A DNA stretch of 64,000 bases from Parcubacteria group bacterium Gr01-1014_3 (GTDB lineage: Bacteria > Patescibacteriota > Minisyncoccia > UBA6257 > WO2-44-18): contig VMGF01000001.1 in assembly GCA_007376445.1 (NCBI GenBank), forward strand, positions 21,802-85,801. Reading direction: 5' to 3'. Shown piece after piece: positions 6,838-52,611 of the stretch. The position numbers and the translations under genes were made by a program. The first letter of the stretch is position 1; each line of letters starts with the position of its first letter. The notes beneath the pieces were generated by a model, which saw nothing but the letters and a program-made list of their open reading frames with translations, ran no database searches and was not told where the DNA came from.

Positions 6838-6967
6838 CTTTTTATCTTAACATTTTTTAGCTTGTCCCATACATAACTAGCTTATGTGTGGGATTGACGC
6901 GTCCGCATAATTATACTAAATTTCTTCTAGTTCTTAAATAGTCACGGAACAATCAAGGAGGCGCAGA

Positions 6968-7396: not shown

Positions 7397-7599
7397 AGCA
7401 GCTGCCAGAAGCCAAGATGGTTATGCATCATGATGATCCGCCCTGCAAAGCTCGTTTACATAATGGCGTTTGTCCTGAATGCGAATTCGTTCCGGATATG
7501 CAGAGCCTGCAATTGTGGCCATATTGCCCGTCGTGCGACGTGCCTCTCAAAAATCTGCAGTGCCCGAAATGCCAACAGACTTTCCAAGCCCCCAGCTAA
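7384..7599 (+). CDS. zinc-ribbon protein, hypothetical
   Basis: CPECEF...CPSCDV...CPKC three CxxC pairs; overlapping start; hairpin terminator follows. Confidence 0.5.
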   Translation: MGIMKQLPEAKMVMHHDDPPCKARLHNGVCPECEFVPDMQSLQLWPYCPSCDVPLKNLQCPKCQQTFQAPS

Positions 7600-7616
7600 T
7601 TAGCTGGGTTTTTTAT
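7590..7616. terminator. bidirectional hairpin terminator
   Basis: cccagctaattagctggg + tttttt. Confidence 0.6.
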
Positions 7617-8040
7617 TGCACGCCATAGATATAATCAATTTAGAATATTCAGAAATTTCAGGAAGATGATCTATGCTAAACCACTTTGCTTCTAAAATTT
7701 CCCGTGTATCAATATTTAATTCTTTATTTTGGGTTATTCCTGTAAAAACTATTACCGTATCTTTTTTGAATTCTTGATTAGAGGTATATTCTCCAATCTT
7801 TCTTAAATTTTCAACTGCGATTCCTACTTCTTCTAATAACTCCCTTTTTATCGCCTGATCGGGTGTTTCATTATTATTTATGCCACCGCCCGGAAACATC
7901 CACTGTTTATAACCACCATAGCTATTTTTGATCATCAAAACTTCTCCGTCATTTTCAACCACGCATTTTACGCCGAATGTTTTTGGCCTGAATATAAACC
8001 AATAAATTAATCCTAAAAAATGTTTAATCTTACTTACCAT
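7600..8040 (-). CDS. NUDIX hydrolase
   Basis: Nudix box [24 protein letters not shown]; start trimmed to MVSKIKHF to avoid overlap with secA stop. Confidence 0.75.
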
Positions 8041-11946: not shown

Positions 11947-11993
11947 AGGGTTTTCTCTTTTATAACTTCCGATTTTGAATGTTGGTTTTATTA

Positions 11994-12036
11994 TTCGCAA
12001 TATTAAATCTCTGATTTGTATATTCGCGATTACTCC
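11994..12036 (-). promoter_or_regulatory. conserved 43-nt upstream motif, copy B (before hpf)
   Basis: TTCGCAATATTAAatctctgATTTGTATATTCGCGATTACTCC. Confidence 0.6.
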
Positions 12037-13007
12037 ACATATATCACTTCCTCCTCTAACTTTATGCCGTATTTCTTATCCACGCCAGACTTCACCAGTT
12101 TAATTAACTGCTTCACATCCTCCGCTTTGGCGCCGAGCGCGTTGACGATAAAGTTTGGATGCTTTGGCGAAATCATCGCGCCGCCGAAGCTGACTCCTTT
12201 CAATCCAGCCTGCGAAATAAGGTACGCCGTCGGCACGACCGGGAATGGGTCTTTTTTGATAACTTCCTTGAACTCTGAGTGGAGTTTTTTCGGGACCAGT
12301 CGCAAATCCACATTCTTAAAAATACTGCCGATATTCGGATACTCCAGCGGCTGGCGCGCTTTCCGGTAGGCGATCTTTTCCTCGATCGCCGCGCGGATGG
12401 CTTTCTTGTCGCCTTTTTTCATTTTGAAAACTGCTTCGATAATAATCTCCTTTGGCCCTAAGCCGACTTGCCCTGAGCTTGCCGAAGGGTCGTCGATCTT
12501 GAAAATGCTATTTCGATAACCAAATTTACATTCTGCATTATTGCGCTTCACTATCTTCGGGATCTTGGCAGAAATATCTAGGCTGACAACTTCATTTATA
12601 TTGTCTTTCGTTTCACCACCAAAAGCTCCGGCGTTACCGCGGATTGCGCCACCAACCGTCCCAGGCAGACCGCCAGCCCATTCGAATCCTGAAAGTGATT
12701 TAGTAATTGAGTAATTGAGTAATTCAGAAATCTGCACACCGGCTCCAACCCGGATCAGATTACCTTCCGCTTTTAATAAACCGATCTCCGGCTTTAAAAC
12801 CAGCCCGCCAAAACCCGCGTCGCTGATCAGAAGGTTGGTACCGCCGCCCAGCGTGAAGATCGGGAGTTTTTCCGCGCGCGCTTTTTCCACGGCGCAAACT
12901 ATGTCCTCAACAGTTTTCGCGGCAAAAAAATAGCGGGCAGCGCCGCCAATTTTGTAGTTGCTGTATTTGGCTAATTCGATTTTATTCTCAAACATGCATT
13001 TATTCAT
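12030..13007 (-). CDS. murB: UDP-N-acetylenolpyruvoylglucosamine reductase
   Basis: FAD-binding N-terminus KIGGAARYF...LGGGTNLL, C-terminal MurB domain; contains in-frame GC 20-mer encoding PSASSGQ. Confidence 0.85.
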   Translation of the reverse strand: MNKCMFENKIELAKYSNYKIGGAARYFFAAKTVEDIVCAVEKARAEKLPIFTLGGGTNLLISDAGFGGLVLKPEIGLLKAEGNLIRVGAGVQISELLNYSITKSLSGFEWAGGLPGTVGGAIRGNAGAFGGETKDNINEVVSLDISAKIPKIVKRNNAECKFGYRNSIFKIDDPSASSGQVGLGPKEIIIEAVFKMKKGDKKAIRAAIEEKIAYRKARQPLEYPNIGSIFKNVDLRLVPKKLHSEFKEVIKKDPFPVVPTAYLISQAGLKGVSFGGAMISPKHPNFIVNALGAKAEDVKQLIKLVKSGVDKKYGIKLEEEVIYVE

Positions 13008-13211: not shown

Positions 13212-13475
13212 TTACTTCACGCGAATGGTAGTTTTTTGTTTTTCGCCACAGACGATGCACGCGAGAAAGCTGATTACTCCTTTAACATAACCGAAACCGT
13301 GCATCACCTTTTCGCAATGCAGATGAGAATCGACTCTGCCATAGTAGTACAATTGATTGTCTGGGATTCCCTCTTTTGGATTCAAGATTTTTTCCAAAAT
13401 CTCAGAAGGAATTTCCTTCAAGTCCTTACCGCCACCGCAGTCACACTTTTCCTCGTCGCCTTCCTGATCAGCCAT
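13212..13475 (-). CDS. Cys-rich small protein, hypothetical
   Basis: GGAGG SD; preceded by conserved 60-nt double-hairpin leader and TTGACA-N17-TAATCT promoter. Confidence 0.55.
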   Translation of the reverse strand: MADQEGDEEKCDCGGGKDLKEIPSEILEKILNPKEGIPDNQLYYYGRVDSHLHCEKVMHGFGYVKGVISFLACIVCGEKQKTTIRVK

Positions 13476-13493
13476 CTATGTCCTCCTTCAAAG

Positions 13494-13552
13494 CCAGCGC
13501 ACATACTTTATGTACGCGGTCGAGCATATAAAAGGAATTTCTTATGTGCTCG
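13494..13552 (-). ncRNA. conserved 60-nt double-hairpin leader element, copy 1
   Basis: near-identical to 41551-41611; hairpins CGAGCACATAAGAA-TTCCTTTTATATGCTCG and GCGCACATAA-N-TTATGTGCGC when read on minus strand. Confidence 0.45.
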
Positions 13553-13563
13553 ATTCCGCCGAT

Positions 13564-13592
13564 AGATTAGCAATTTAGGATGGATTTGTCAA
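13564..13592 (-). promoter_or_regulatory. promoter TTGACA-N17-TAATCT (minus strand)
   Basis: rc: TTGACAaatccatcctaaattgcTAATCT; identical copy at 14003-14031. Confidence 0.6.
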
Positions 13593-17408: not shown

Positions 17409-17795
17409 TTATAAAGTTAACTCGTCGAGCAACTTATCAATTTCAGCGCCAATGGCTTCATCGGACTCGAGATAATACTTAACTTCGCCAAGCTGGATCT
17501 GAAAATCCAGATTGCTAGCTTCACTGCGAAGTTTGGCTTCGTTGATCAAAGAAACCGCGCCAGGCGAAACTTTCTGAAGATTCAGATAAGAGAAGCCGCC
17601 GATAACCACGAAAAGCAAAAGGCTGGCCAGAGATAAGGCCATGCTCAACTTCAGACTGTCCAAAACTCCCCGGACTAGACCTGGAAACTGCTTCTGCGGA
17701 GCGGAGATGATTAAATTCTTGGAACGTTCAAGAAAGCCTTTTTCCGGCTGTAGAATCTTCAGTGATTTTAAAAGTTGTAAGATCTTTTCCTCCAT
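17409..17795 (-). CDS. putative anti-sigma factor (single TM)
   Basis: position immediately downstream of ECF sigma gene, central TM helix; inference from context only. Confidence 0.4.
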   Translation of the reverse strand: MEEKILQLLKSLKILQPEKGFLERSKNLIISAPQKQFPGLVRGVLDSLKLSMALSLASLLLFVVIGGFSYLNLQKVSPGAVSLINEAKLRSEASNLDFQIQLGEVKYYLESDEAIGAEIDKLLDELTL

Positions 17796-17804
17796 TTAAT
17801 TTAA

Positions 17805-17847
17805 TTCGCAATATTAATTCTTTTATTTGTACATTCGCGATTACTCC
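17805..17847 (-). promoter_or_regulatory. conserved 43-nt upstream motif, copy C (between ECF sigma and anti-sigma-like gene)
   Basis: TTCGCAATATTAATtcTTTTATTTGTAcATTCGCGATTACTCC; 9 nt from ATG 17795. Confidence 0.6.
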
Positions 17848-18401
17848 GATTCACCATCGGCGGACCGATCTCCCAGTTGTTCCCTGAGAGCATTGAGAGC
17901 GCGGTGCTGGATGAGCCTTACTGCCCCCTCACTTTTACCCAGCGTCGCGGCAATATCGCGATGCGGCAGGTCTTCGATGAATTTCATTATCAAAACGTCT
18001 TGCTGTTCAGGACCCAAGTTCCGCATAGCCTTCTGGATGACTTCCAGACTCAAGATTTTCTCCAGATTGTTTTCCGTCATGTCCACCAGCTTGACCGCGC
18101 TTTCATCCAACTCATCAACGTTGGCATGAAACTTTTTAGTCCGGTAGTGGTCAATGACCTTGTTTCGGGCGATCTGGTAAAGCCAGCTCGAGAATGGAAA
18201 GCCTTGCGACTTATATCCCCGAAGGTTCTGCCAGGCGCTTAAAAACACATCGTGGGTCAAATCTTCGGCCTCATACCGATTAGTGACCTTGAGAAGGATG
18301 AAGCGATAAATTTGAGGCGTGTAGTGGTCGTAAATTTGGCCAAAACACTCCTTTTCGCCCTTCTTAGCCCTATTAATTAATTTATCCTCACCTTCTAGCA
18401 T
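17841..18401 (-). CDS. RNA polymerase ECF-type sigma-70 family factor
   Basis: region 2 (FGQIYDHYTPQIYRFILLKV...DLTHDVFLSAWQNL) and region 4 HTH (DIAATLGKSEGAVRLIQHRALNALR). Confidence 0.85.
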   Translation of the reverse strand: MLEGEDKLINRAKKGEKECFGQIYDHYTPQIYRFILLKVTNRYEAEDLTHDVFLSAWQNLRGYKSQGFPFSSWLYQIARNKVIDHYRTKKFHANVDELDESAVKLVDMTENNLEKILSLEVIQKAMRNLGPEQQDVLIMKFIEDLPHRDIAATLGKSEGAVRLIQHRALNALREQLGDRSADGESE

Positions 18402-28401: not shown

Positions 28402-28464
28402 AGTGGTTATACTACATCAAAATGAATTCATTGGCAATAGCCGAACTCGGAATCCGAACACAAA

Positions 28465-28600
28465 TGTTAATTTCCAATTTTAAATTTTTAATTTTAAATT
28501 AAATCAAAATGAGAAAATGTTAAAAAATTTATTCATTAATTCATTCAATTAAAACTTAAAATTTATAATTTAAAATTATTCCATTTTAGCTTAGAATTTG
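28465..28600. repeat. AT-rich AATTTTAAATT repeat island (operon spacer rpsU / HIT)
   Basis: tandem degenerate units ttccaattttaaatttttaattttaaatt...; same family at 28931-29026, 30340-30456, 38170-38265, 50692-50806, 51670-51755, 37255-37300. Confidence 0.7.
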
Positions 28601-28929: not shown

Positions 28930-28930
28930 G

Positions 28931-29026
28931 AAAATTTTAAATTTCCAATTTTAAATTTTAATTTAATTTTTTAATTTATGAATTTTATAATTCATTTAAA
29001 ATTAAAAATTTAGAATTTAAAATTAC
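28931..29026. repeat. AT-rich AATTTTAAATT repeat island (spacer HIT / hisS)
   Basis: aaattttaaatttccaattttaaattttaatttaatttttt... Confidence 0.7.
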
Positions 29027-30339: not shown

Positions 30340-30456
30340 GATTAAGAATTTATAAGCAAGTTTTTTGGAATTTTAAATTATAAATTTTTAATTTTAAATG
30401 AATTTTAAATTTTGAAATTAGTAATTAATTTAAAATTTATAATTTAAACTTTAAAA
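30340..30456. repeat. AT-rich repeat island (spacer hisS / lepB)
   Basis: ggaattttaaattataaatttttaattttaaatgaattttaaattttgaaatt... Confidence 0.7.
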
Positions 30457-31011
30457 TTATTCAACGCCTGGTCGGGAAATAATGCCAAGCTCTTTAACCG
30501 GTAAGAGGCGGGCCCTGACAATACCAACGATATATCTCCTCTCCAGCGGTCCCCAACTTCTTGAATCCAGGCTGTTCAAACGATTATCCCCCATCACGAA
30601 ATACTGATCCGGCCCGAGCACCGCTTCCACGCCACCGGTCGTAAAAGTATTCTCCGGAAGATATTTTTCGTTGAGGAAAATCTCCACGCCTTTGTTGAAA
30701 ACTTTAACTTCATTTTTTCTGACGGTTACTTTATCTCCCGGAATGCCGATAATTCTTTTAATAAAAAAAGTTTTAGGATCTTTAGGATACCGGTGCACGA
30801 TCACGTCGCCGCGCTCCGGCTCACCGAATCGATAAGTCAGTTCATCTACTATTAAATAATTGCCGTCGTAAAAGTTCGGCTCCATACTGGCGCCGCTCAC
30901 TAAAAATGGCTGGGCGATGAACTGGCGAATCAAAAACACCACGGCCGCCGAAACGATGACCACCTCCAGCACTTCCCAGACAGAAGATAAGAATTTCTTG
31001 AAGCCAACCAT
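30457..31011 (-). CDS. lepB: signal peptidase I
   Basis: GASMEPNF (Ser box), RIIGIPGDKV, YFVMGDNRLNSLDSR boxes. Confidence 0.85.
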   Translation of the reverse strand: MVGFKKFLSSVWEVLEVVIVSAAVVFLIRQFIAQPFLVSGASMEPNFYDGNYLIVDELTYRFGEPERGDVIVHRYPKDPKTFFIKRIIGIPGDKVTVRKNEVKVFNKGVEIFLNEKYLPENTFTTGGVEAVLGPDQYFVMGDNRLNSLDSRSWGPLERRYIVGIVRARLLPVKELGIISRPGVE

Positions 31012-33808: not shown

Positions 33809-33819
33809 CCCGTTTTTTA

Positions 33820-33860
33820 TTCGCAATATTAATCTTTTATTTGTATATTAGCGATTACTT
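33820..33860 (-). promoter_or_regulatory. conserved 43-nt upstream motif, copy D (before pilM-like gene)
   Basis: TTCGCAATATTAATcTTTTATTTGTATATTaGCGATTACTt; 11 nt from ATG 33808. Confidence 0.55.
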
Positions 33861-34748: not shown

Positions 34749-35595
34749 AATATTTTCTCTAAAACTAGAGAATTGATGTTCCCACCGCACGGACGGTTTT
34801 CCCGTATACGGCGAGCTCAATGCATTTTTTGCTTTAGCTTATAAAGATCACGCAAACCGCTAGGAATAAGGTGTTCGCCTTTGCGGATCCTACGCATAAT
34901 CTCACAGAAAATTTGGAAATCGTACCTCTTTGAAGGAAATCGTAATCGATTTTCTTTGAAAAACGGTATAATTATTTCTGCCAAATCTGTTCTGTTAGCT
35001 ACTTCGAAACGATAGCAATGCTGATGATTTTCGCGATTGTCTTTTTGAAAGTAGACATTCCCGCATTTAAAGTATTCCTTTAAAGCATCCAGTATTACCT
35101 TATCCTTTTCGATAAGCTTTACGTAAAATCTAGGCTCTATCTTTACTCTTCTAGTTGTTCTGTTGATTTGATCAGGATTACGAACATAAGCAGTAAAACT
35201 GCCTTCGCCATCCACCAAACCAACGATGTAATCTTTAGTTAACATTGAGTGAGTGCCTTCATCCCGCTAATCGAGACTACTATGACTCAGCTGACTTCTG
35301 ACGCTGCGTCAGTTTTATGATACCTCGATATTGCTATCGAGAACAGCATCAGATCTCCACAGGTCACGTAAAATTCTCTTCTTAGCATCCTAGACAAGCC
35401 GTAGATAAAGTCTTCCCCGCCCTCACCACCCACTGGCAGGTCGACTGGCTTTGTTAATGTCTGGCTGTTATTTGCTTTCAGATCCTCCACCGAACACCTC
35501 GCGATGCTCGGCTATCTTTTAGCTACGTTCCGATGACGGACATCGGAAGAATGGATTTTAACCATTTAGAAAATTACGCTGCTGCGCGCTTTTAT
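34749..35595 (-). mobile_element. self-splicing-type intron (847 bp) in 16S rRNA near the helix-44 base (E. coli position about 1400), carrying a LAGLIDADG homing endonuclease ORF
   Basis: conserved CCTGTACTCAC | ... | CGCCCGTCA junction is split by non-rRNA sequence containing ORF 34817-35245. Confidence 0.7.
34817..35245 (-). CDS. LAGLIDADG homing endonuclease (intron-encoded)
   Basis: YIVGLVDGEGSF dodecapeptide motif, size 142 aa, located inside 16S intron. Confidence 0.8.
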   Translation of the reverse strand: MLTKDYIVGLVDGEGSFTAYVRNPDQINRTTRRVKIEPRFYVKLIEKDKVILDALKEYFKCGNVYFQKDNRENHQHCYRFEVANRTDLAEIIIPFFKENRLRFPSKRYDFQIFCEIMRRIRKGEHLIPSGLRDLYKLKQKMH

Positions 35596-35912
35596 TGTGA
35601 GTACAGGACTCGAGAACGTATTCACCGTGGTATAGCTGACCCACGATTACTAGCGATTCCAGCTTCATGAGGGCGAGTTGCAGCCCTCAATCTGAACTGA
35701 GGCCATTTTTGATGGGATTAGCTCCGCCTTGCGGCTTGGCAACCCTTTGTAATGGCCATTGTAGCACGAGTGTGGCCCAGGGCATCAGAGGGCCATGCGG
35801 ATTTGACGTCATCCCCGCCTTCCTCCGTGTTAAACACGGCAGTCTCCCGCGACATATAAAACGCAGGATAGGGGTTGCGCTCGTTAACCCACTTAAGGGA
35901 ACGCTTCAAAGT

Positions 35913-35944
<32 letters not shown>

Positions 35945-36067
35945 TCACGTCCTTGAGAGACGACGCACCTTTCGGCGCGTCTTCGTGACCATTTCAAGCC
36001 CTGGTAAGGTTCTTCGTTTATTGTCGAATTAAACCTCATGCTCCACCGCTTGTGCGAGTCCCCGTCT

Positions 36068-36099
<32 letters not shown>

Positions 36100-36609
36100 T
36101 CCCAGGCGGTCAACTTAACGCGTTAGCTACGCCACTCCGAGGGTCGATACTCGAAACAGCAAGTTGACATAGTTTAGGGCGTGGACTACAAGGGTATCTA
36201 ATCCTTTTTGCTCCCCACGCTTTCGTGCAATGAGAGTCAGGAGTGCTCCAGTTAAATGCCTTCGCCTTTGGTATTCCTCACAATATCAACGGATTTCACC
36301 CCTACACCGTGAGTTCTATTAACCTCTAGCACCCTCTAGTCAGGCCGTATCTTCTGCGAGCTTCCCGTTGAGCGGGAAGATTTTACAAAAGACGCACCCG
36401 ACCTCCTGCGCACGCTTTACGCCCAATAAATCCGGATAACGCTCGTGGCCTTCGTATTACCGCGGCTGCTGGCACGAAGTTTGCAGCCACTTATTCCATG
36501 GGTACAATCAATAACTTTTTCCCCATTAAAAGCAGTTTACGATCCGAAGACCTTCATCCTGCACGCGGCGTCGCTCGATCAGACTTTCGTCCATTGTCGA
36601 ATATTCTCG

Positions 36610-36652
<43 letters not shown>

Positions 36653-37419
36653 CGTTGGGGATCAGCCTCTCAGCCCCCCTACCGGTCATAGCCTTGGTGA
36701 GCCATTACCTCACCAACTAGCTGATCGGACCTAGGCCGCTCCCGAAGTGACTTGCGTCTTTCGTCTTTCGACAATATCGGACATTAGTCTATCTTTCGAT
36801 AGATTATTTCCGTCTTCGGGGTGCGTACCAAGGTGTTACTAACCCGTTCGCCACTATACTTTTATCTCTCTTGACTTGATATAATCTCATCTTAATTAAC
36901 AAAAGTACCGTTCGACTTGCATGCCTTATCCACGCCGCCAGCGTTCATCCTGGACCAGGATCAAATCCTCAAAAAAAATTACCGAACATTGAATTTATTT
37001 TAGTAAATTCACCATTCGCTAACTGTTGGGACAACTACAAAATTCTTGACTAAATTTTGACTCGATCTTGATTTTTAATTCTTGGTTGTGTATACAACAC
37101 ACTGCAATTTTCGAAGTTCAGTCGGCTGCGCTTTTTTAATAACGCATCCGGCCCGCTCTCCCTGAATCCCAGAGGGAACCGGCCGGATGAATTAAAACCT
37201 TTATTCACTTGTCGCCTATCTGTGAAAAGAAGTATATATGAAAGCGCTGTTTCGTGTCAACTGTCACAAAACAGCGAATTTTCAATTCTCAATTTTGCAA
37301 TTTTTGTCCCTTCGGGACATCTCCTGTAGGAAGACAATTAATTTACAATGAATTAATGTCCAAACAGTTTGATAATTTTATTTTAAGCATTGAATGAAAA
37401 TTGGTATTTGGAAATTGAA

Positions 37420-38086: not shown

Positions 38087-38169
38087 ACGTTTCTCCTATT
38101 ATTTCGTGACAGGAACAGTCAAAGAACTTGACTTACATACTACTCTATTTCAAAGTATTTGTCAAATGG

Positions 38170-38265
38170 GAAATTTTAAGTTTTAAATTATAAATTTTAA
38201 TTTAATTATTTAATTTCAAAATTTAAAATTAATTTATAATTAAAAATTTAGAATTTAAAATTATC
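38170..38265. repeat. AT-rich repeat island (upstream of lipoprotein gene / rpmE)
   Basis: gaaattttaagttttaaattataaattttaatttaatt... Confidence 0.65.
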
Positions 38266-38429
38266 AAATACCTCTTGCTTTTTCGTAATTTCTCGTATAT
38301 AATGTGTATTAAGTTTATGAAGCAAGACATTCACCTCCCGATTTCTTAATTCTTAAAATTAAGAAATCGAGGATCCTCGATTTTGTAGACAAATCAAAGA
38401 TTTGTACAAAATCGGGACAAAATACCTTT

Positions 38430-38753: not shown

Positions 38754-38883
38754 TCGCCCTCAGCACGCCGCTCCGACTTATGTCGGAGACCGATTTTAGG
38801 AAGACTAGCCGGCGTGCCTCCGGGATGTTCCGAAAAATTAGTTGTCCTCCGCCCTGTTATTTGGTAAATTGATAGCGTTAAAT

Positions 38884-39618
38884 ATGGAAAAAACTTTCGA
38901 CAAAATCTATCTCGAAGTAAGGGCCGGAACCGGTGGCGATGAAGCTTCGATCTTCGCCGGTGATCTGGTCCATATGTATCAAAAATATGCCGTCAAACAA
39001 GGCTGGCGTTTTAGTATTTCCGATTCCTCCCCTGGCACGATCGGCGGCTACAAGACTTTCATCGGCCGCGTGGATGGCAAGGGTTGCTATGAAGCTTATA
39101 AAAATGAATCCGGCACCCATCGCGTTCAGCGAGTCCCTGCCACGGAAAAGTCCGGTCGGGTACACACTTCCACCGCCACGGTAGCGATTCTCCCGGTCGT
39201 CGAACCAAAAGAAGTTAATTTAAATCCGAGCGATCTCGAGGTTACCTTTTCCCGCGCCGGTGGCCCGGGCGGTCAGAACGTGAACAAGATCGAATCCGCA
39301 GTCCGTATTTTACATAAACCAAGCGGAATCGTGGTTTCTTGCCGTGAAGAACGAGATCAGCGCTCCAACCGCGAACGCGCTATGGAAATGCTTTTGGCTA
39401 AACTCTATGAAATGCAACGCGCCAAAGAATTTGGCGACGTCACCGAAGCCCGCCGCGCTCAAGTTGGCACCGCCGACCGCTCTGAAAAGATCCGCACCTA
39501 CAACTTCCCAGATGATCGCATCACCGACCATCGCTTTGGCGTTAAAATCCACAACGTGGAAGAAGTTTTGAATGGCAACTTTGACGCAATTCTTAAAAAG
39601 ATAAATAAGCAGCCATAA
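38884..39618 (+). CDS. prfA: peptide chain release factor 1, lacking N-terminal domain 1
   Basis: GGQ motif (AGGPGGQNVNK), RF1 codon-recognition tripeptide PAT in RVQRVPATEKSGRVHTS; protein begins at position equivalent to E. coli RF1 residue about 110. Confidence 0.8.
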   Translation: MEKTFDKIYLEVRAGTGGDEASIFAGDLVHMYQKYAVKQGWRFSISDSSPGTIGGYKTFIGRVDGKGCYEAYKNESGTHRVQRVPATEKSGRVHTSTATVAILPVVEPKEVNLNPSDLEVTFSRAGGPGGQNVNKIESAVRILHKPSGIVVSCREERDQRSNRERAMEMLLAKLYEMQRAKEFGDVTEARRAQVGTADRSEKIRTYNFPDDRITDHRFGVKIHNVEEVLNGNFDAILKKINKQP

Positions 39619-39624
39619 AGTTTA

Positions 39625-39690
39625 CCCTGAGCCCGCCGAAGGGTCATTGCGAGCCAACATTCCAACATTCTTGAGAATGTTGGAATGTTG
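39625..39690. repeat. compound repeat after prfA: GC 20-mer CCCTGAGCCCGCCGAAGGGT followed by perfect 36-bp palindrome
   Basis: CAACATTCCAACATTC-TTGA-GAATGTTGGAATGTTG at 39655-39690; 20-mer also at 12471-12490, 54811-54830, variant 58633-58653. Confidence 0.6.
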
Positions 39691-39751
39691 TGCGTGGCAA
39701 TCTTACATTTTTGCAAATAAAAAAACCCGAATCTTATGATTAGGGTTTTTG

Positions 39752-39994
39752 TTAGTGAGGTTTACCGCAATTCTCGCATTTTGGAATAAATACGGATTTT
39801 GATTTTGAGATCTTTTTTTCTTTTAGTGTAACCAATCCGTCTCCAATCAATCCCCAAATAATACTTCTCACATTATAAGACTCAAATCTGTTCTGTATCC
39901 GATCAACCAATTCTTGAGCATCTTTTGATCTTTCAGCGCTTTGAAGTTCCGTAAGAATCGTACAAATAACTTGGCAAAGCTTAGTCGGCCTCAT
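39752..39994 (-). CDS. hypothetical small protein (C-terminal CxxC)
   Basis: ORF in island; CENCGKPH tail. Confidence 0.4.
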   Translation of the reverse strand: MRPTKLCQVICTILTELQSAERSKDAQELVDRIQNRFESYNVRSIIWGLIGDGLVTLKEKKISKSKSVFIPKCENCGKPH

Positions 39995-40233
39995 CGCGCG
40001 CCTCCTTTTCTGCTCATACCGAGGTGCTTTCTCAAAACATCGCGCAGTTGTACTTGCTGTTCTTTCGTGAGCCGCAATGAGCCATCACCAGGCAAAATCG
40101 TGAAAACATACCGATCCTTATTCGGAAGCAGGTCAGAAATGGAAAACCCATATTTCTTGAGATCACGATTGATCGCCCGCTCCTTCTTCTTCAGCTGTTT
40201 CCTCAACTCTTTCGTAATCAGAACAATACCCAT
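39991..40233 (-). CDS. hypothetical small basic protein
   Basis: GGAGG SD before ATG 40233. Confidence 0.45.
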   Translation of the reverse strand: MGIVLITKELRKQLKKKERAINRDLKKYGFSISDLLPNKDRYVFTILPGDGSLRLTKEQQVQLRDVLRKHLGMSRKGGAR

Positions 40234-40290
40234 ATTCTTTCCTCCATTCAACGAACCGCCTACAAAGTAACAGTTTCAACACAAAATCAC

Positions 40291-40362
40291 AAGTACTATC
40301 ACGCGTGATAGTGCCCACCGCTTTCCCCATAGGAAAGTACTTTCCTATGGGGAAAGCGGTGG
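40291..40362. promoter_or_regulatory. palindromic operator cluster P2
   Basis: CTATCACGCGTGATAG plus 45-nt palindrome CACCGCTTTCCCCATAGGAAAGTACTTTCCTATGGGGAAAGCGGTG. Confidence 0.5.
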
Positions 40363-40403
40363 TGATAAAAATCGGCAAATAAAAAACGACGATCTTATCG
40401 TCG

Positions 40404-40655
40404 TTATCTCGATATCTCTTCGTAAGCTTTACGCAATGCCACTACTCCTGGGCATTTCTTGGTCGGGCACTTTATATTCCAGACTGACACCTTGCACTCA
40501 TCGTCAGCACGCGGGCCATACTCTATGATTTGTCCGGACTTAACCATTTTTTCGTCCGCTTTATCAAGAATAAAGTAACAGCCACAATCATGACATTTGA
40601 GCTTTTTCCCAATCCAAGATGGCGATCTTACTTTACCCTTCTTAATAATACGCAT
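40404..40655 (-). CDS. zinc-ribbon small protein
   Basis: CHDCGC...CPTKKCPG; start set at MRIIKK downstream of palindromic operator cluster. Confidence 0.45.
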   Translation of the reverse strand: MRIIKKGKVRSPSWIGKKLKCHDCGCYFILDKADEKMVKSGQIIEYGPRADDECKVSVWNIKCPTKKCPGVVALRKAYEEISR

Positions 40656-40708
40656 CTGAAATCCTTTCAAGGTACGACCACACTCTACAATAAAAAGGCT
40701 TATTTCGC

Positions 40709-40789
40709 AAGTACTATCACGCGTGATAGTACTATCCCATGTGATAGTGGCGAATATTCCATTATCCAGCCATGGCTGGATAATGGAAT
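40709..40789. promoter_or_regulatory. palindromic operator cluster P3
   Basis: CTATCACGCGTGATAG, CTATCCCATGTGATAG, TTCCATTATCCAGCCATGGCTGGATAATGGAA. Confidence 0.5.
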
Positions 40790-40801
40790 AAAACAAGCGA
40801 C

Positions 40802-41047
40802 CTATTTGGTCGCTTGGCGTAGTTGCTTGATCAGAGTATCGAACACCGCTTTCCGCATAAAATAATGAGGAGCGTGACTGCCACTCTTCCAGCGATCAAC
40901 GGTTGGCAGAGAACAACCAAATTCGCGAGCTATATCTCTTTGGGTTAAAAATCCATTATCAATAGTCATCGCGATAATCTCCTGAAAATCTTTATCGCTT
41001 TTGGTTGAGGCATTCTCGATCTTGGCGATTAGTTCTTCTCTGGTCAC
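40802..41047 (-). CDS. helix-turn-helix DNA-binding protein
   Basis: LTQRDIAREFGCSLPTVDRWKSG HTH. Confidence 0.55.
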   Translation of the reverse strand: MTREELIAKIENASTKSDKDFQEIIAMTIDNGFLTQRDIAREFGCSLPTVDRWKSGSHAPHYFMRKAVFDTLIKQLRQATK

Positions 41048-41322
41048 TTTTTACCTCGCTTCTTTTCCTGGCAGCACGGAAACTCCTTGCAATGAATATG
41101 AATTGGATTCCCACAGCCAGGACAATGAAGATAGTGTCCGTATGGGGCTCCGCCATAGCGTCCAATCGGATCGGCGATGGTTAACTTCAGCTGACATTCG
41201 CACAGGAGGCACACGACTTTATCGCCTTCCCAGCAACAGCAGGTTGTTTTGTTTTTCTTCTGACGAATCTTCTTTTCCGCTTCTTCGATAATCAGCGGCC
41301 TTCCGACTTTTAGAATCTTCAT
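41044..41322 (-). CDS. Cys-rich small protein (about 15 Cys in 92 aa)
   Basis: AGGAGG SD before ATG 41322; CCCWEGDKVVCLLCEC...CPGCGNPIHIHCKEFPCC. Confidence 0.45.
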   Translation of the reverse strand: MKILKVGRPLIIEEAEKKIRQKKNKTTCCCWEGDKVVCLLCECQLKLTIADPIGRYGGAPYGHYLHCPGCGNPIHIHCKEFPCCQEKKRGKK

Positions 41323-41332
41323 TTGACCTCCT

Positions 41333-41533
41333 TTAGGCAACCCCGAACTCGATTCGATGGCTACATGCTTTGCAGTTGAAGACGTACTTTCTTTTACTGC
41401 CGAGCCATCTTGCGCCCTTACGAACATCGTCTCCAGCTTTCAAGACATGGATTGTTTTACAGTCCTGTCTATCGCACTGAACCTGTAATCCAACCCACGG
41501 CTTCGGACTCTCATTCTTCGCATCCAGTGGCAT
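41333..41533 (-). CDS. zinc-ribbon small protein
   Basis: GGGAGG SD; CDRQDC...CKAC; preceded by conserved 60-nt double-hairpin leader. Confidence 0.5.
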   Translation of the reverse strand: MPLDAKNESPKPWVGLQVQCDRQDCKTIHVLKAGDDVRKGARWLGSKRKYVFNCKACSHRIEFGVA

Positions 41534-41550
41534 AACGCCTCCCTTTCAAA

Positions 41551-41611
41551 CCAGCGCACATAACAATTTATGTGCGCGGCCGAGCATATAAAAGGAATTC
41601 TTATGTGCTCG
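41551..41611 (-). ncRNA. conserved 60-nt double-hairpin leader element, copy 2
   Basis: see copy 1; directly upstream of GGGAGG SD of zinc-ribbon gene 41333-41533. Confidence 0.45.
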
Positions 41612-41648
41612 GGTACCGCCAGAATAGTACAACAAAACTAACTATGCC

Positions 41649-41755
41649 GCAACTGCTTTCCTATAGGAAAGCAGTTGCTATCCAGCTGGATAGCACTATC
41701 GCGCGTGATAGCATCTTCGCTTTCCTGAGGGAAAGTACTTTCCCTCAGGAAAGCG
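41649..41755. promoter_or_regulatory. palindromic operator cluster P4
   Basis: GCAACTGCTTTCCTATAGGAAAGCAGTTGC, CTATCCAGCTGGATAG, CTATCGCGCGTGATAG, CGCTTTCCTGAGGGAAAGTACTTTCCCTCAGGAAAGCG. Confidence 0.5.
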
Positions 41756-41841
41756 AAGAGCCGTGAATAAAAAAATCCCACACATAAATTATGTATGGGA
41801 CACCGGCGCAAGCTTGCCCGCCTAGGGTGGGTTAATGCGCC

Positions 41842-42153
41842 TTATCGAGCCGATCCTTTCAACTTAGAGACTGTCGGCCTCTCGTAGGATTCGGTCAGAA
41901 CGCCGAGATCCCACTTGAAGCCGAGGGCCGTCGCAAGCCGGACCATCATCTTGATGGTGATTGGAAACTCGCCATCCAGCAGTTGGGAAAGATATTCAGA
42001 TGGAATACCAACCCGCTTCGCCAACTCATCCTTGGAAATACCCCGGGCGTCGATCGCGTCATAAACCTTACTCGAGATAGCCACATGAAGTCGACTGGCC
42101 TCGCCCTGAACCTCGCGCTCAATATTCTTCCGCTTTTTCAAGATCTCATTCAT
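41842..42153 (-). CDS. XRE-family HTH transcriptional regulator
   Basis: ISKDELAKRVGIPSEYLSQLLDGE HTH_3 pattern. Confidence 0.7.
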   Translation of the reverse strand: MNEILKKRKNIEREVQGEASRLHVAISSKVYDAIDARGISKDELAKRVGIPSEYLSQLLDGEFPITIKMMVRLATALGFKWDLGVLTESYERPTVSKLKGSAR

Positions 42154-42418: not shown

Positions 42419-42588
42419 TTACCCACGCACTAATTTTGCTTATTCAATATTTAAATTTTCTATCTTTAAGTCTTATCTAAATCAAAACAGCGATACGCTA
42501 GGGATCACGGCTATTCGCCGCCCGCGTATCGCTGTTCATATATCTGCAAAATTAGTGCGGGGTTATCGTTTTGTTGCTAAAATTTCGG
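42419..42588. mobile_element. MITE-like 170-bp element with 17-bp terminal inverted repeats, copy 1
   Basis: TIR CCCACGCACTAATTTTGC ... GCAAAATTAGTGCGGGG; internal palindrome ACAGCGATACGC...GCGTATCGCTGT; about 90% identical to 52441-52611. Confidence 0.55.
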
Positions 42589-50688: not shown

Positions 50689-50691
50689 GGA

Positions 50692-50806
50692 ATAATTTTA
50701 AATTATAAATTTTAAGTTTTAATTGAATGAATCAATGAACAAATTTTTAAACATTTTATCATTTTGATTTAATTTAAAATTAAAAATTTAAAATTGAAAA
50801 TTAGCG
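50692..50806. repeat. AT-rich repeat island (spacer between split tkt genes)
   Basis: aataattttaaattataaattttaagttttaattgaatg...aaaattaaaaatttaaaattgaaaatt. Confidence 0.7.
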
Positions 50807-52440: not shown

Positions 52441-52611
52441 TTACCCACGCACTAATTTTGCCTTTTCAATATTTAAATTTTTCTATCTTTAAGTCTTTTT
52501 TAAATTAAAACAGCGATACGCTGGGGATCACGGCTATTCGCCGCCCGCGTATCGCTATTTATATATCTGCAAAATTAGTGCGGGGTTATCGTTTTGTTCC
52601 TAAAATTTCGG
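52441..52611. mobile_element. MITE-like 170-bp element, copy 2 (upstream of rpe)
   Basis: same TIRs and internal palindrome as copy 1. Confidence 0.55.

Follow-up and report, generated by a model that had tools for sequence, protein, structure and literature searches.

Paired hairpins ahead of two unrelated small-protein genes belong to a dispersed repeat family of Patescibacteria

Patescibacteria have tiny genomes with few recognisable regulators and have become genetically tractable only recently. In the 64,000-nt stretch of a Parcubacteria group genome analysed here (the window), a double hairpin of about 60 nt stands ahead of two genes for small Cys-rich proteins that lie far apart. The preliminary description of this locus took the unit to be a conserved structured cis-element and suggested a metal- or stress-responsive riboregulator of zinc-binding proteins or a site for an RNA-binding protein. 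The locus raises the question of whether the unit is a leader dedicated to these two genes or part of something more widespread.

Both copies are on the minus strand and could be read directly from the sequence. Copy A (41551–41611) consists of hairpin 1 (H1), a GGCC linker, hairpin 2 (H2) and TGG, and reads through as CGAGCACATAAGAATTCCTTTTATATGCTCG-GCC-GCGCACATAAATTGTTATGTGCGC-TGG. Its H1 (41581–41611; CGAGCACATAAGAATTCCTTTTATATGCTCG) joins the arms GAGCACATAA and TTATATGCTC around the loop GAATTCCTT, with a C.A opposition at stem position 6 on the minus strand and a stem extended by one C-G pair, while H2 (41554–41577; GCGCACATAAATTGTTATGTGCGC) is a perfect 10-bp stem, GCGCACATAA-ATTG-TTATGTGCGC. 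Copy B (13494–13552) follows the same plan with a GACC linker, in which one base is changed relative to copy A. The loop of its H1 (13521–13552), GAAATTCCTT, is one base longer than in copy A, and its H2 (13497–13517; GCGTACATAAAGTATGTGCGC) has a loop 3 nt shorter and a C-to-T change in the stem that leaves a U.G at one position on the minus strand. Of 62 aligned columns, 55 agree between the two copies (89%, close to the roughly 90% first reported), and indels are confined to the two loops. The likeness runs for about 95 nt, from the -10 region to the Shine–Dalgarno (SD) sequence, with none past the start codons. Both units end 22–23 nt before the ATG, directly ahead of the SD sequences GGGAGG (41538–41543, minus strand) and AAGGAGG (13482–13488, minus strand), as had been noted from their shared placement. 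The two stem-loops proposed for the mRNA strand were recovered by folding: the 90-nt leaders each form two hairpins, at -35.0 kcal/mol (z -3.8) and -28.2 kcal/mol (z -3.2), and shuffled sequences gave an expectation of 0.00 chance occurrences for the H1 pattern.

The two genes are unrelated. Gene A (41333–41533, minus strand) encodes a 66-aa, four-Cys zinc-ribbon-like orphan, for which all Zn_ribbon matches in the domain search were sub-threshold. Gene B (13212–13475, minus strand) encodes an orphan of 87 aa, listed under Parcubacteria group bacterium Gr01-1014_3 as a hypothetical protein; the gene has a terminator of its own and lies in a neighbourhood with murB, hpf, RNase Y and secA. The proteins contain four or five Cys each, and the CxxC pairs attributed to both were roughly right: there is one CxxC in each, but the other Cys are spaced differently (Cx4C...CxxC in A and CxC...C...CxxC in B). 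Direct comparison of the two gave no similarity, in line with the earlier impression that they are not obviously homologous. Upstream of gene B, reading of the sequence suggests a promoter at 13564–13592 (minus strand) made of TTGACA (13587–13592), 17 nt and TAATCT (13564–13569), which ends 11–12 nt ahead of hairpin 1. A consensus promoter scanner left this site unflagged, its -10 matching at only three of six positions; the related locus L097 has the same layout, TTGACA-17-TAATAT-13 nt-H1. For gene A, the putative -10 element TACTAT (41624–41629, minus strand) aligns with the TATGAT of a hairpin-less locus, L005. Both genes that lie upstream of the window copies have canonical terminators of their own, and the promoter-like sites fall between these terminators and the hairpins.

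Gene A is the first gene of an island of short genes at 39650–41800, which was noted for several further features. Besides gene A, an HTH_3 gene (41842–42153) and a DUF3853-type HTH gene (40802–41047) are found here. Perfect palindromes have arms of 22 bp (40315–40362), 21 bp (41714–41759), 16 bp (39655–39690 and 40755–40790) and 13 bp (41649–41678), and three operator-like copies of ACTATCACGCGTGATAGT start at 40287, 40705 and 41687. No integrase was seen in the island, which may be a small mobile or phage-derived module.

The preliminary description had proposed a covariance-model scan for further copies and for covariation, and both were found. Model R1, built from 36 doublets of relatives and matching both strands, recovered exactly copies A and B from the 64-kb window (E 7e-18 and 1e-11), with the next-best match at E 0.17. 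Copy A was matched at 41550–41614 with 73.9/62.3 bits on the two strands and copy B at 13493–13555 with 50.9/41.2 bits. A one-genome-per-species scan with a pattern for the shared stem core returned 29 loci, four of them from CPR-labelled genomes (three Saccharibacteria and one Nealsonbacteria) and built as a hairpin, a 4-nt linker, a second hairpin and TGRG; a more specific pattern gave 75 metagenome contigs. The family thus occurs in 4 CPR genomes (L010, L017, L024 and L027) and 75 metagenome contigs. Allowing two substitutions per arm, 212 hairpins (160 non-redundant) were counted in 82 arrays of 1–5, most commonly doublets, many copies being related by descent so that the counts are not independent events. 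The density varies from two doublets in the 64-kb window to as many as 19 hairpins in 14.6 kb at L049, and L100 is packed with arrays around TyrRS. Proteins common to the window and the family loci are 36–68% identical. Copies A and B belong to a hairpin-repeat family that is dispersed in Patescibacteria and shows no link to gene function.

Each unit is 21–34 nt long and forms a hairpin with a stem of 10–13 bp, of which 10 bp are conserved in sequence (GAGCACATAA/TTATGTGCTC). Loops of 0–12 nt, with modes at 4, 7, 5 and 1, are free in both sequence and length. The consensus doublet, CA-GAGCACATAA-loop-TTATGTGCTC-GRYC-GAGCACATAA-loop-TTATGTGCTC-TG, is palindromic as a whole. A literature search on CPR palindromic repeats and REPs found no description of this hairpin family, and a full-text search with the arm 10-mers returned only a primer coincidence (PMC5449607); as far as these searches reach, the family is undescribed. 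IMG/VR viral contigs contained zero doublets and one single hairpin, and a phage origin was rejected.

Hairpins with related cores were also encountered. In the window, single hairpins of the form CCCAYACATAA-loop-TTATGTRTGGG occur at 6865–6893 and 41776–41800; they share the family core CACATAA/TTATGTG with other outer stems and score weakly with R1 (E 0.5–0.8). One lies in the 5' region of radC; the other, which is T-tailed, forms the terminator of the HTH gene that precedes copy A. Other families with a GCACATAA...TTATGTGC hairpin core were seen at L008, L011, L012, L013, L015, L021 and L022 and at L006, L007, L014, L026, L028 and L034; one of them is a double-hairpin repeat of Acidimicrobiia MAGs, present five times in a single MAG. 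The other is a cross-domain element, GGCTTTGCACATAAAGT...GGTTTATGTGCAGAAT...TTTGCACATAAAC, which is found in Thermoplasmatales, Ignavibacteriaceae and a Euryarchaeota MAG and looks like a mobile-element end.

The genes next to the repeats bear directly on the proposal of a gene-specific leader RNA that senses metal or oxidative stress on behalf of small zinc-binding proteins. Two stable stem-loops directly ahead of the SD of two Cys-rich genes would suit such a leader, as would the minimum-energy fold of copy A, in which the 5' flank pairs with the SD, but this pairing is not reproduced in copy B. Across the family, the units adjoin genes for tRNA synthetases (aaRS) of the Leu/Ile/Val, Ala and Tyr types, P-type ATPases, ribosomal proteins L2, L6, S19 and L25, enolase, a PBP, MraZ, SSB, glutamine synthetase (glnA), PspC and glycosyltransferases, and the downstream genes fall into 56 Pfam families with no functional theme. 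There is no conserved unpaired pocket. Rfam gave no family match for the window at the gathering score, and even at permissive thresholds (E <= 1–10) the hairpins drew only chance miRNA-type matches; with neither a covariance-model match nor a functionally related gene set, a cis-regulatory RNA or riboswitch of an Rfam class was rejected.

Further evidence came from the single homologue of gene A (61% identity), on contig L005, which lacks the hairpins. There, the -10 element (GTTG-TATGAT) is followed by 4 nt and then TTTGAAAAGGAGG-ATG, whereas in the window GTTG-TACTAT is followed by about 75 nt including the hairpins and then TTTGAAAGGGAGG-ATG. Because this homologue has no hairpins, the block is an insertion or deletion relative to gene A and no fixed part of its control region. 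Homologues of the orphan gene B were sought for an equivalent comparison of leaders, and none were found. A dedicated zinc or stress riboregulator is accordingly extremely improbable: the feature is real, the functional guess was wrong, and the shared leader carries no information on zinc biology. As separate observations, the 687-nt contig L005 repeats its first 52 nt at its end, so that it is either a small circular molecule, tandemly repeated DNA or an artefact of assembly, and gene A occurs in the protein collection only on contigs of <1 kb.

The constraint on the hairpins themselves was assessed across the 36 doublets. Pairing is kept in 96.5% of cells, and double-sided changes occur at 10 pairs (28 cells), a level reached by none of 500 shuffles and nowhere near approached by slid controls. 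What stood of the earlier cis-element claim is thus the conserved structure, now seen in many more copies with compensatory changes that keep both stems, and what fell is the dedicated regulator. A selected RNA helix is expected to show a strong preference for G.U. At half-compensated positions on the sense strand, A.C (21) is as frequent as G.U (20), which is not the pattern that selection on an RNA fold would leave. Relative to the downstream gene, the linker is found in either orientation (GGTC or GACC), and so are the loops. Solo arm 8-mers are at chance frequency (18 observed versus 18.5 expected in 605 kb), with 313 of 331 occurrences lying within hairpins, from which it follows that the hairpin or palindrome arrangement is essential; the same chance frequency excluded a DNA uptake sequence (DUS/USS). 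These patterns favour a palindrome maintained at the level of DNA or of the hairpin, which could mean ssDNA or RNA from one or the other strand, in the manner of REP/REPIN-type elements.

At orthologous loci the constraint on the stems is strict. Three ortholog groups were compared, with four species upstream of aaRS genes, three upstream of ATPase genes and three in a further group. Their stems are 100% identical in spite of divergence in the coding flanks, loops and spacers; in one case the loop is inverted from one orthologue to another, and a locus-specific stem variant, GCGCATATAA/TTATATGCGC, is kept in all four aaRS orthologues.

Symmetric changes in both arms, together with orientation independent of the gene, would also be expected if the inverted repeats were operator DNA binding a dimeric transcription factor, with two adjacent operators placed at +1 here or at -35 in other lineages. 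The hairpins are spaced about 28–31 bp centre to centre, the unit lies directly downstream of the -10 element in loci of the window type, and the aaRS and ATPase groups have it about 11 nt ahead of a -10-like box, with 6–10 nt between that box and the ATG. NrdR-box-like tandem sites and CIRCE-like sites are known operators of palindromic or tandem layout. The half-sites of the family, however, are 0–12 bp apart, a variation that argues against a dimeric protein on duplex DNA with its fixed geometry; units also sit inside ribosomal-protein operons and overlap stop codons, the upstream ORF ending within the first arm in 8 of 35 co-directional cases so that the hairpin supplies the stop codon. 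With variable spacing and an unrelated gene set, NrdR-box-like and CIRCE-like sites were rejected, and we regard dimeric operators in general as quite improbable.

Hairpins between genes could alternatively be intrinsic terminators or attenuators that separate transcription units, and several arrays do begin 13–29 nt past a stop codon. The ATPase-group copies are followed by UGAUUUUUUGUU, the only group with a clear T-tract, and those at L061 and L083 by UGGUUUUUGA. In general, however, no T-tract follows the arrays: the 12 nt after them contain a mean of 4.2 T on the sense strand and the same number on the other side. In the window, the hairpins are followed only by UGGUUUGAAA or UGGCUUUGAA, and the upstream genes already have terminators, with a promoter between terminator and hairpins. 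Intrinsic termination was thus rejected as a general role and is very improbable as an account of the family.

Arrays lie close to both neighbouring genes, and some are found inside ribosomal-protein clusters. At L049, arrays of 4–5 hairpins occupy the L23/L2, S8/L6 and SecY/Adk junctions inside such a cluster, as part of a cassette that, at about 190 nt, takes up all of the intergenic DNA as far as the ATG and is reused before at least eight genes. Copies of this cassette lie at 1805–2065, 7431–7669 and 11021–11228 of L049 and also at L069, L073 and L084. The cassette is made up of AGGGCTTGGTC..., three hairpins that are conserved, TGACTCGTAAATTC, a small stem with covariation between genes, and TTAACGATTTCTAACATG; it has no SD, the starts being preceded by CTAACATG, and it recurs ahead of many genes of one organism. 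L024, whose L2 is 67% identical to that of L049, has a doublet between L2 and S19, whereas the L049 arrays are at other junctions of the same operon.

Such sites could be punctuation selected by the host, in which a conserved Patescibacteria hairpin-RNA- or ssDNA-binding protein or RNase would process, stabilise or co-ordinate housekeeping transcripts. The sequence of the stem, beyond its pairing, is nearly invariant among organisms whose proteins are 36–68% identical, stems at orthologous loci are perfectly kept between diverging flanks, and the retention of the GCGCATATAA variant in four orthologues speaks against simple homogenisation. Arrays in ribosomal-protein operons, within cassettes reaching the start codon, and the many units that end 18–30 nt ahead of a start codon point the same way. 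Near-invariant stems across divergent organisms and perfect orthologous conservation are explained by a host-selected function at least as well as by selfish DNA. Against this, the hairpins do not favour either strand relative to transcription, the sense strand has G.U and A.C equally often, both orientations occur and loops can invert. Positions differ between related genomes, and the homologue of gene A does without the unit. The contexts (35 co-directional, 7 divergent and 3 convergent, from crude ORF calls) do not differ from the same-contig background (p 0.73), and an excess of divergent over convergent sites, which at first suggested a bias to the 5' side of genes, was not significant against that background. 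To our knowledge, no partner protein for the hairpin is known. We consider a host-selected punctuation signal unlikely, though it is the main rival reading. The more specific form, in which the GAGCACATAA/TTATGTGCTC hairpin would be the recognition element of a Patescibacteria-wide candidate factor and the arrays would cut, protect or co-ordinate core-gene transcripts, is likewise improbable, at about one chance in a handful. The element may be a protein-binding site, one of the roles first suggested. Host selection of a recognition signal would be the more interesting outcome; if true, the punctuation system would amount to lineage-wide control of core genes, including ribosomal-protein operons, in minimal-genome symbionts.

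The account we consider probable is that the hairpins form an undescribed REP/REPIN-like palindromic repeat family, whose window copies are embedded in a reused cassette running from promoter to SD. The defining features of REPs have been set out (PMC3733652 and PMC3116915), and the family resembles REP, BIME and REPIN elements in consisting of short extragenic palindromes that are repeated, form arrays and are paired into a larger palindrome. Sites within operons, presence or absence between relatives and persistence at orthologous sites are further points of likeness. The unit of 21–34 nt falls within the 20–40 bp given for a REP palindrome (Di Nocera 2013), and two inverted units forming a larger hairpin, as in a REPIN, are seen in the palindromic doublet, although the linker is only 3–4 nt here and the spacer of REPINs is longer. 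Other features differ. The REP tag GTAG/CGTC is present in 0 of 320 six-nt hairpin flanks, which instead have C(C/A) 5' and (T/G)G 3' of the hairpin. REP superfamilies lie mainly downstream of ORFs in unidirectional or convergent contexts; with crude ORF calls, no 3'-side or convergent preference was seen for this family. REPs also reach high copy numbers within a genome; the hairpins are dense at L049, but their number in the window is modest. REP families are species-specific in some cases and common to several species in others (PMC3733652); a stem sequence common to organisms with 36–68% protein identity is broader than expected for a typical REP family. REPINs are mobilised by RAYT tyrosine transposases (Y1/HUH), with a cognate RAYT gene in the genome that the repeats flank. 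No transposase or other mobilising enzyme was found for the hairpins: a tblastn search with E. coli RayT against the window and all loci gave nothing below E 1, a weak test, as the fragments total 0.79 Mb and a single-copy gene is easily missed in them.

The family behaves in a REP/REPIN-like way: copies come and go in intergenic DNA beside unrelated genes, lie in either orientation and can persist at orthologous sites. By analogy with REPINs, copying through hairpin intermediates is the most likely origin of the dispersed copies.

How the window copies fit this picture is indicated by a subgroup of five (copies A and B, L097, L061 and L083) with a shared layout: a -10-like box, 10–13 nt (with GGCGG in 3/5), a long-loop hairpin, GGCC, a short-loop hairpin, UGGUUU(G/U)... 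and an SD. L083 has no SD and has its two hairpins in opposite order. L097, ahead of glnA, is the closest architectural match to the window copies. The downstream genes of the subgroup are gene A, gene B, glnA, a DUF444 gene and pspC. The subgroup exemplifies promoter or leader reuse ahead of non-homologous genes, a phenomenon surveyed in 'Promoter reuse in prokaryotes' (PMC3575422), which deals with reused or mobile promoters. The common feature is a highly similar region of about 95 nt, from -10 to SD, before non-homologous genes of one genome; the cassette also precedes other genes in other organisms, and further reused upstream modules occur in the window. Unlike the cases there, the core of the cassette belongs to a larger hairpin family that is also found without a promoter-like context. 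The window doublets each belong to such a cassette, which is about 95 nt long, consists of a -10 box, GGCGG, the two hairpins, UGGUUUGAAA and an SD, and stands before two unrelated small genes.

Transcription from the adjacent promoter-like sites would yield mRNAs that begin about 4–6 nt before a stable stem-loop pair, and for both genes the unit is very probably part of the 5' UTR. Where an organism has RNase Y (and probably RNase J), 5' structures of this kind usually shield the message or mark a processing point, and the window contains an RNase Y gene. The pair may offer generic protection against RNase J or RNase Y-type decay, or serve as a processing point, with no ligand sensing; a generic 5'-structure effect on the mRNA is the most likely consequence. 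The ompA, aprE and ermC leaders are 5'-terminal stabiliser stem-loops, and ERIC/IRU, Correia elements and RPEs are MITE-like repeats that become part of mRNAs. The family is like both in that palindromes in transcribed intergenic DNA are predicted to alter mRNA ends or stability without sensing, and like the MITE-like repeats it can donate stop codons or promoter parts. It differs from these repeats in its much smaller unit of about 55 nt and the lack of a detectable terminal-inverted-repeat or target-duplication structure. A further parallel is with T7 RNase III and RNase Y processing hairpins, which likewise recur between the cistrons of operons, directly 5' of the next coding region. The RNase III substrates known to us have stems longer than the 10–13 bp of the family. 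RNase Y cleavage is guided by downstream structure (PMC5449607).

Two further repeat classes were considered. TIGR arrays have two spacers of 8–12 nt per unit, box C/D and an adjoining Tas (Nop-domain) gene (PMC12045711); they were rejected, as the variable parts here are loops of mostly 4–7 nt without a regular period, in at most five units and among housekeeping neighbours. For Xer recombination, a dif-like site has two 11-bp arms and a centre of 6–8 bp and occurs once per replicon. The inner ...CATAA/TTATG... of the family resembles dif arms, but a 6–8-nt spacer is found in a minority and the copies are multiple and tandem, and a dif/Xer site was rejected as well.

The family is thus either long-lived miniature mobile DNA without a known transposase or a shared expression signal. 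It provides a sequence marker for CPR intergenic architecture. Model R1 can be used on complete genomes, and the hairpin offers a testable handle on the organisation of CPR gene expression.

Other sequences recur upstream of genes in the window. A module of about 50 nt, AGTAATCGCGAATATACAAAT-N8-TTAATATTGCGAAT on the minus strand, was found at 759–814, 11982–12037, 17793–17848 and 33815–33859, directly upstream of four unrelated genes, among them hpf and one resembling PilM/PilN. One copy follows closely after the gene for an ECF-like sigma factor (17841–18401), and the module could be a shared promoter or regulon signal. A direct repeat of 139 nt (42450–42588 and 52473–52611), with copies 94% identical and 10 kb apart and containing an internal hairpin, CAGCGATACGC...GCGTATCGCTG, has no Rfam match; it may encode a small RNA or represent a further upstream module that is reused. 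AT-rich phased repeats (AATTTTAAATTTTCAATTTTAAAT) occupy many intergenic regions of the window, for example 28460–28580, 28930–29025, 30365–30460, 38165–38290 and 50690–50800, and may be curved DNA or UP-element-like.

Among the remaining genes of the window, the 16S rRNA gene (35550–36976, minus strand) has downstream of it a match to group II intron D1-D4 (35254–35345) and a LAGLIDADG endonuclease ORF (34817–35245); no 23S rRNA gene was detected in the 64-kb window. A release-factor ORF with PCRF and RF-1 domains (38842–39618) is only 258 aa long and matches the PCRF model from position 100; it may represent RF2 with the usual programmed frameshift or a mis-called start.
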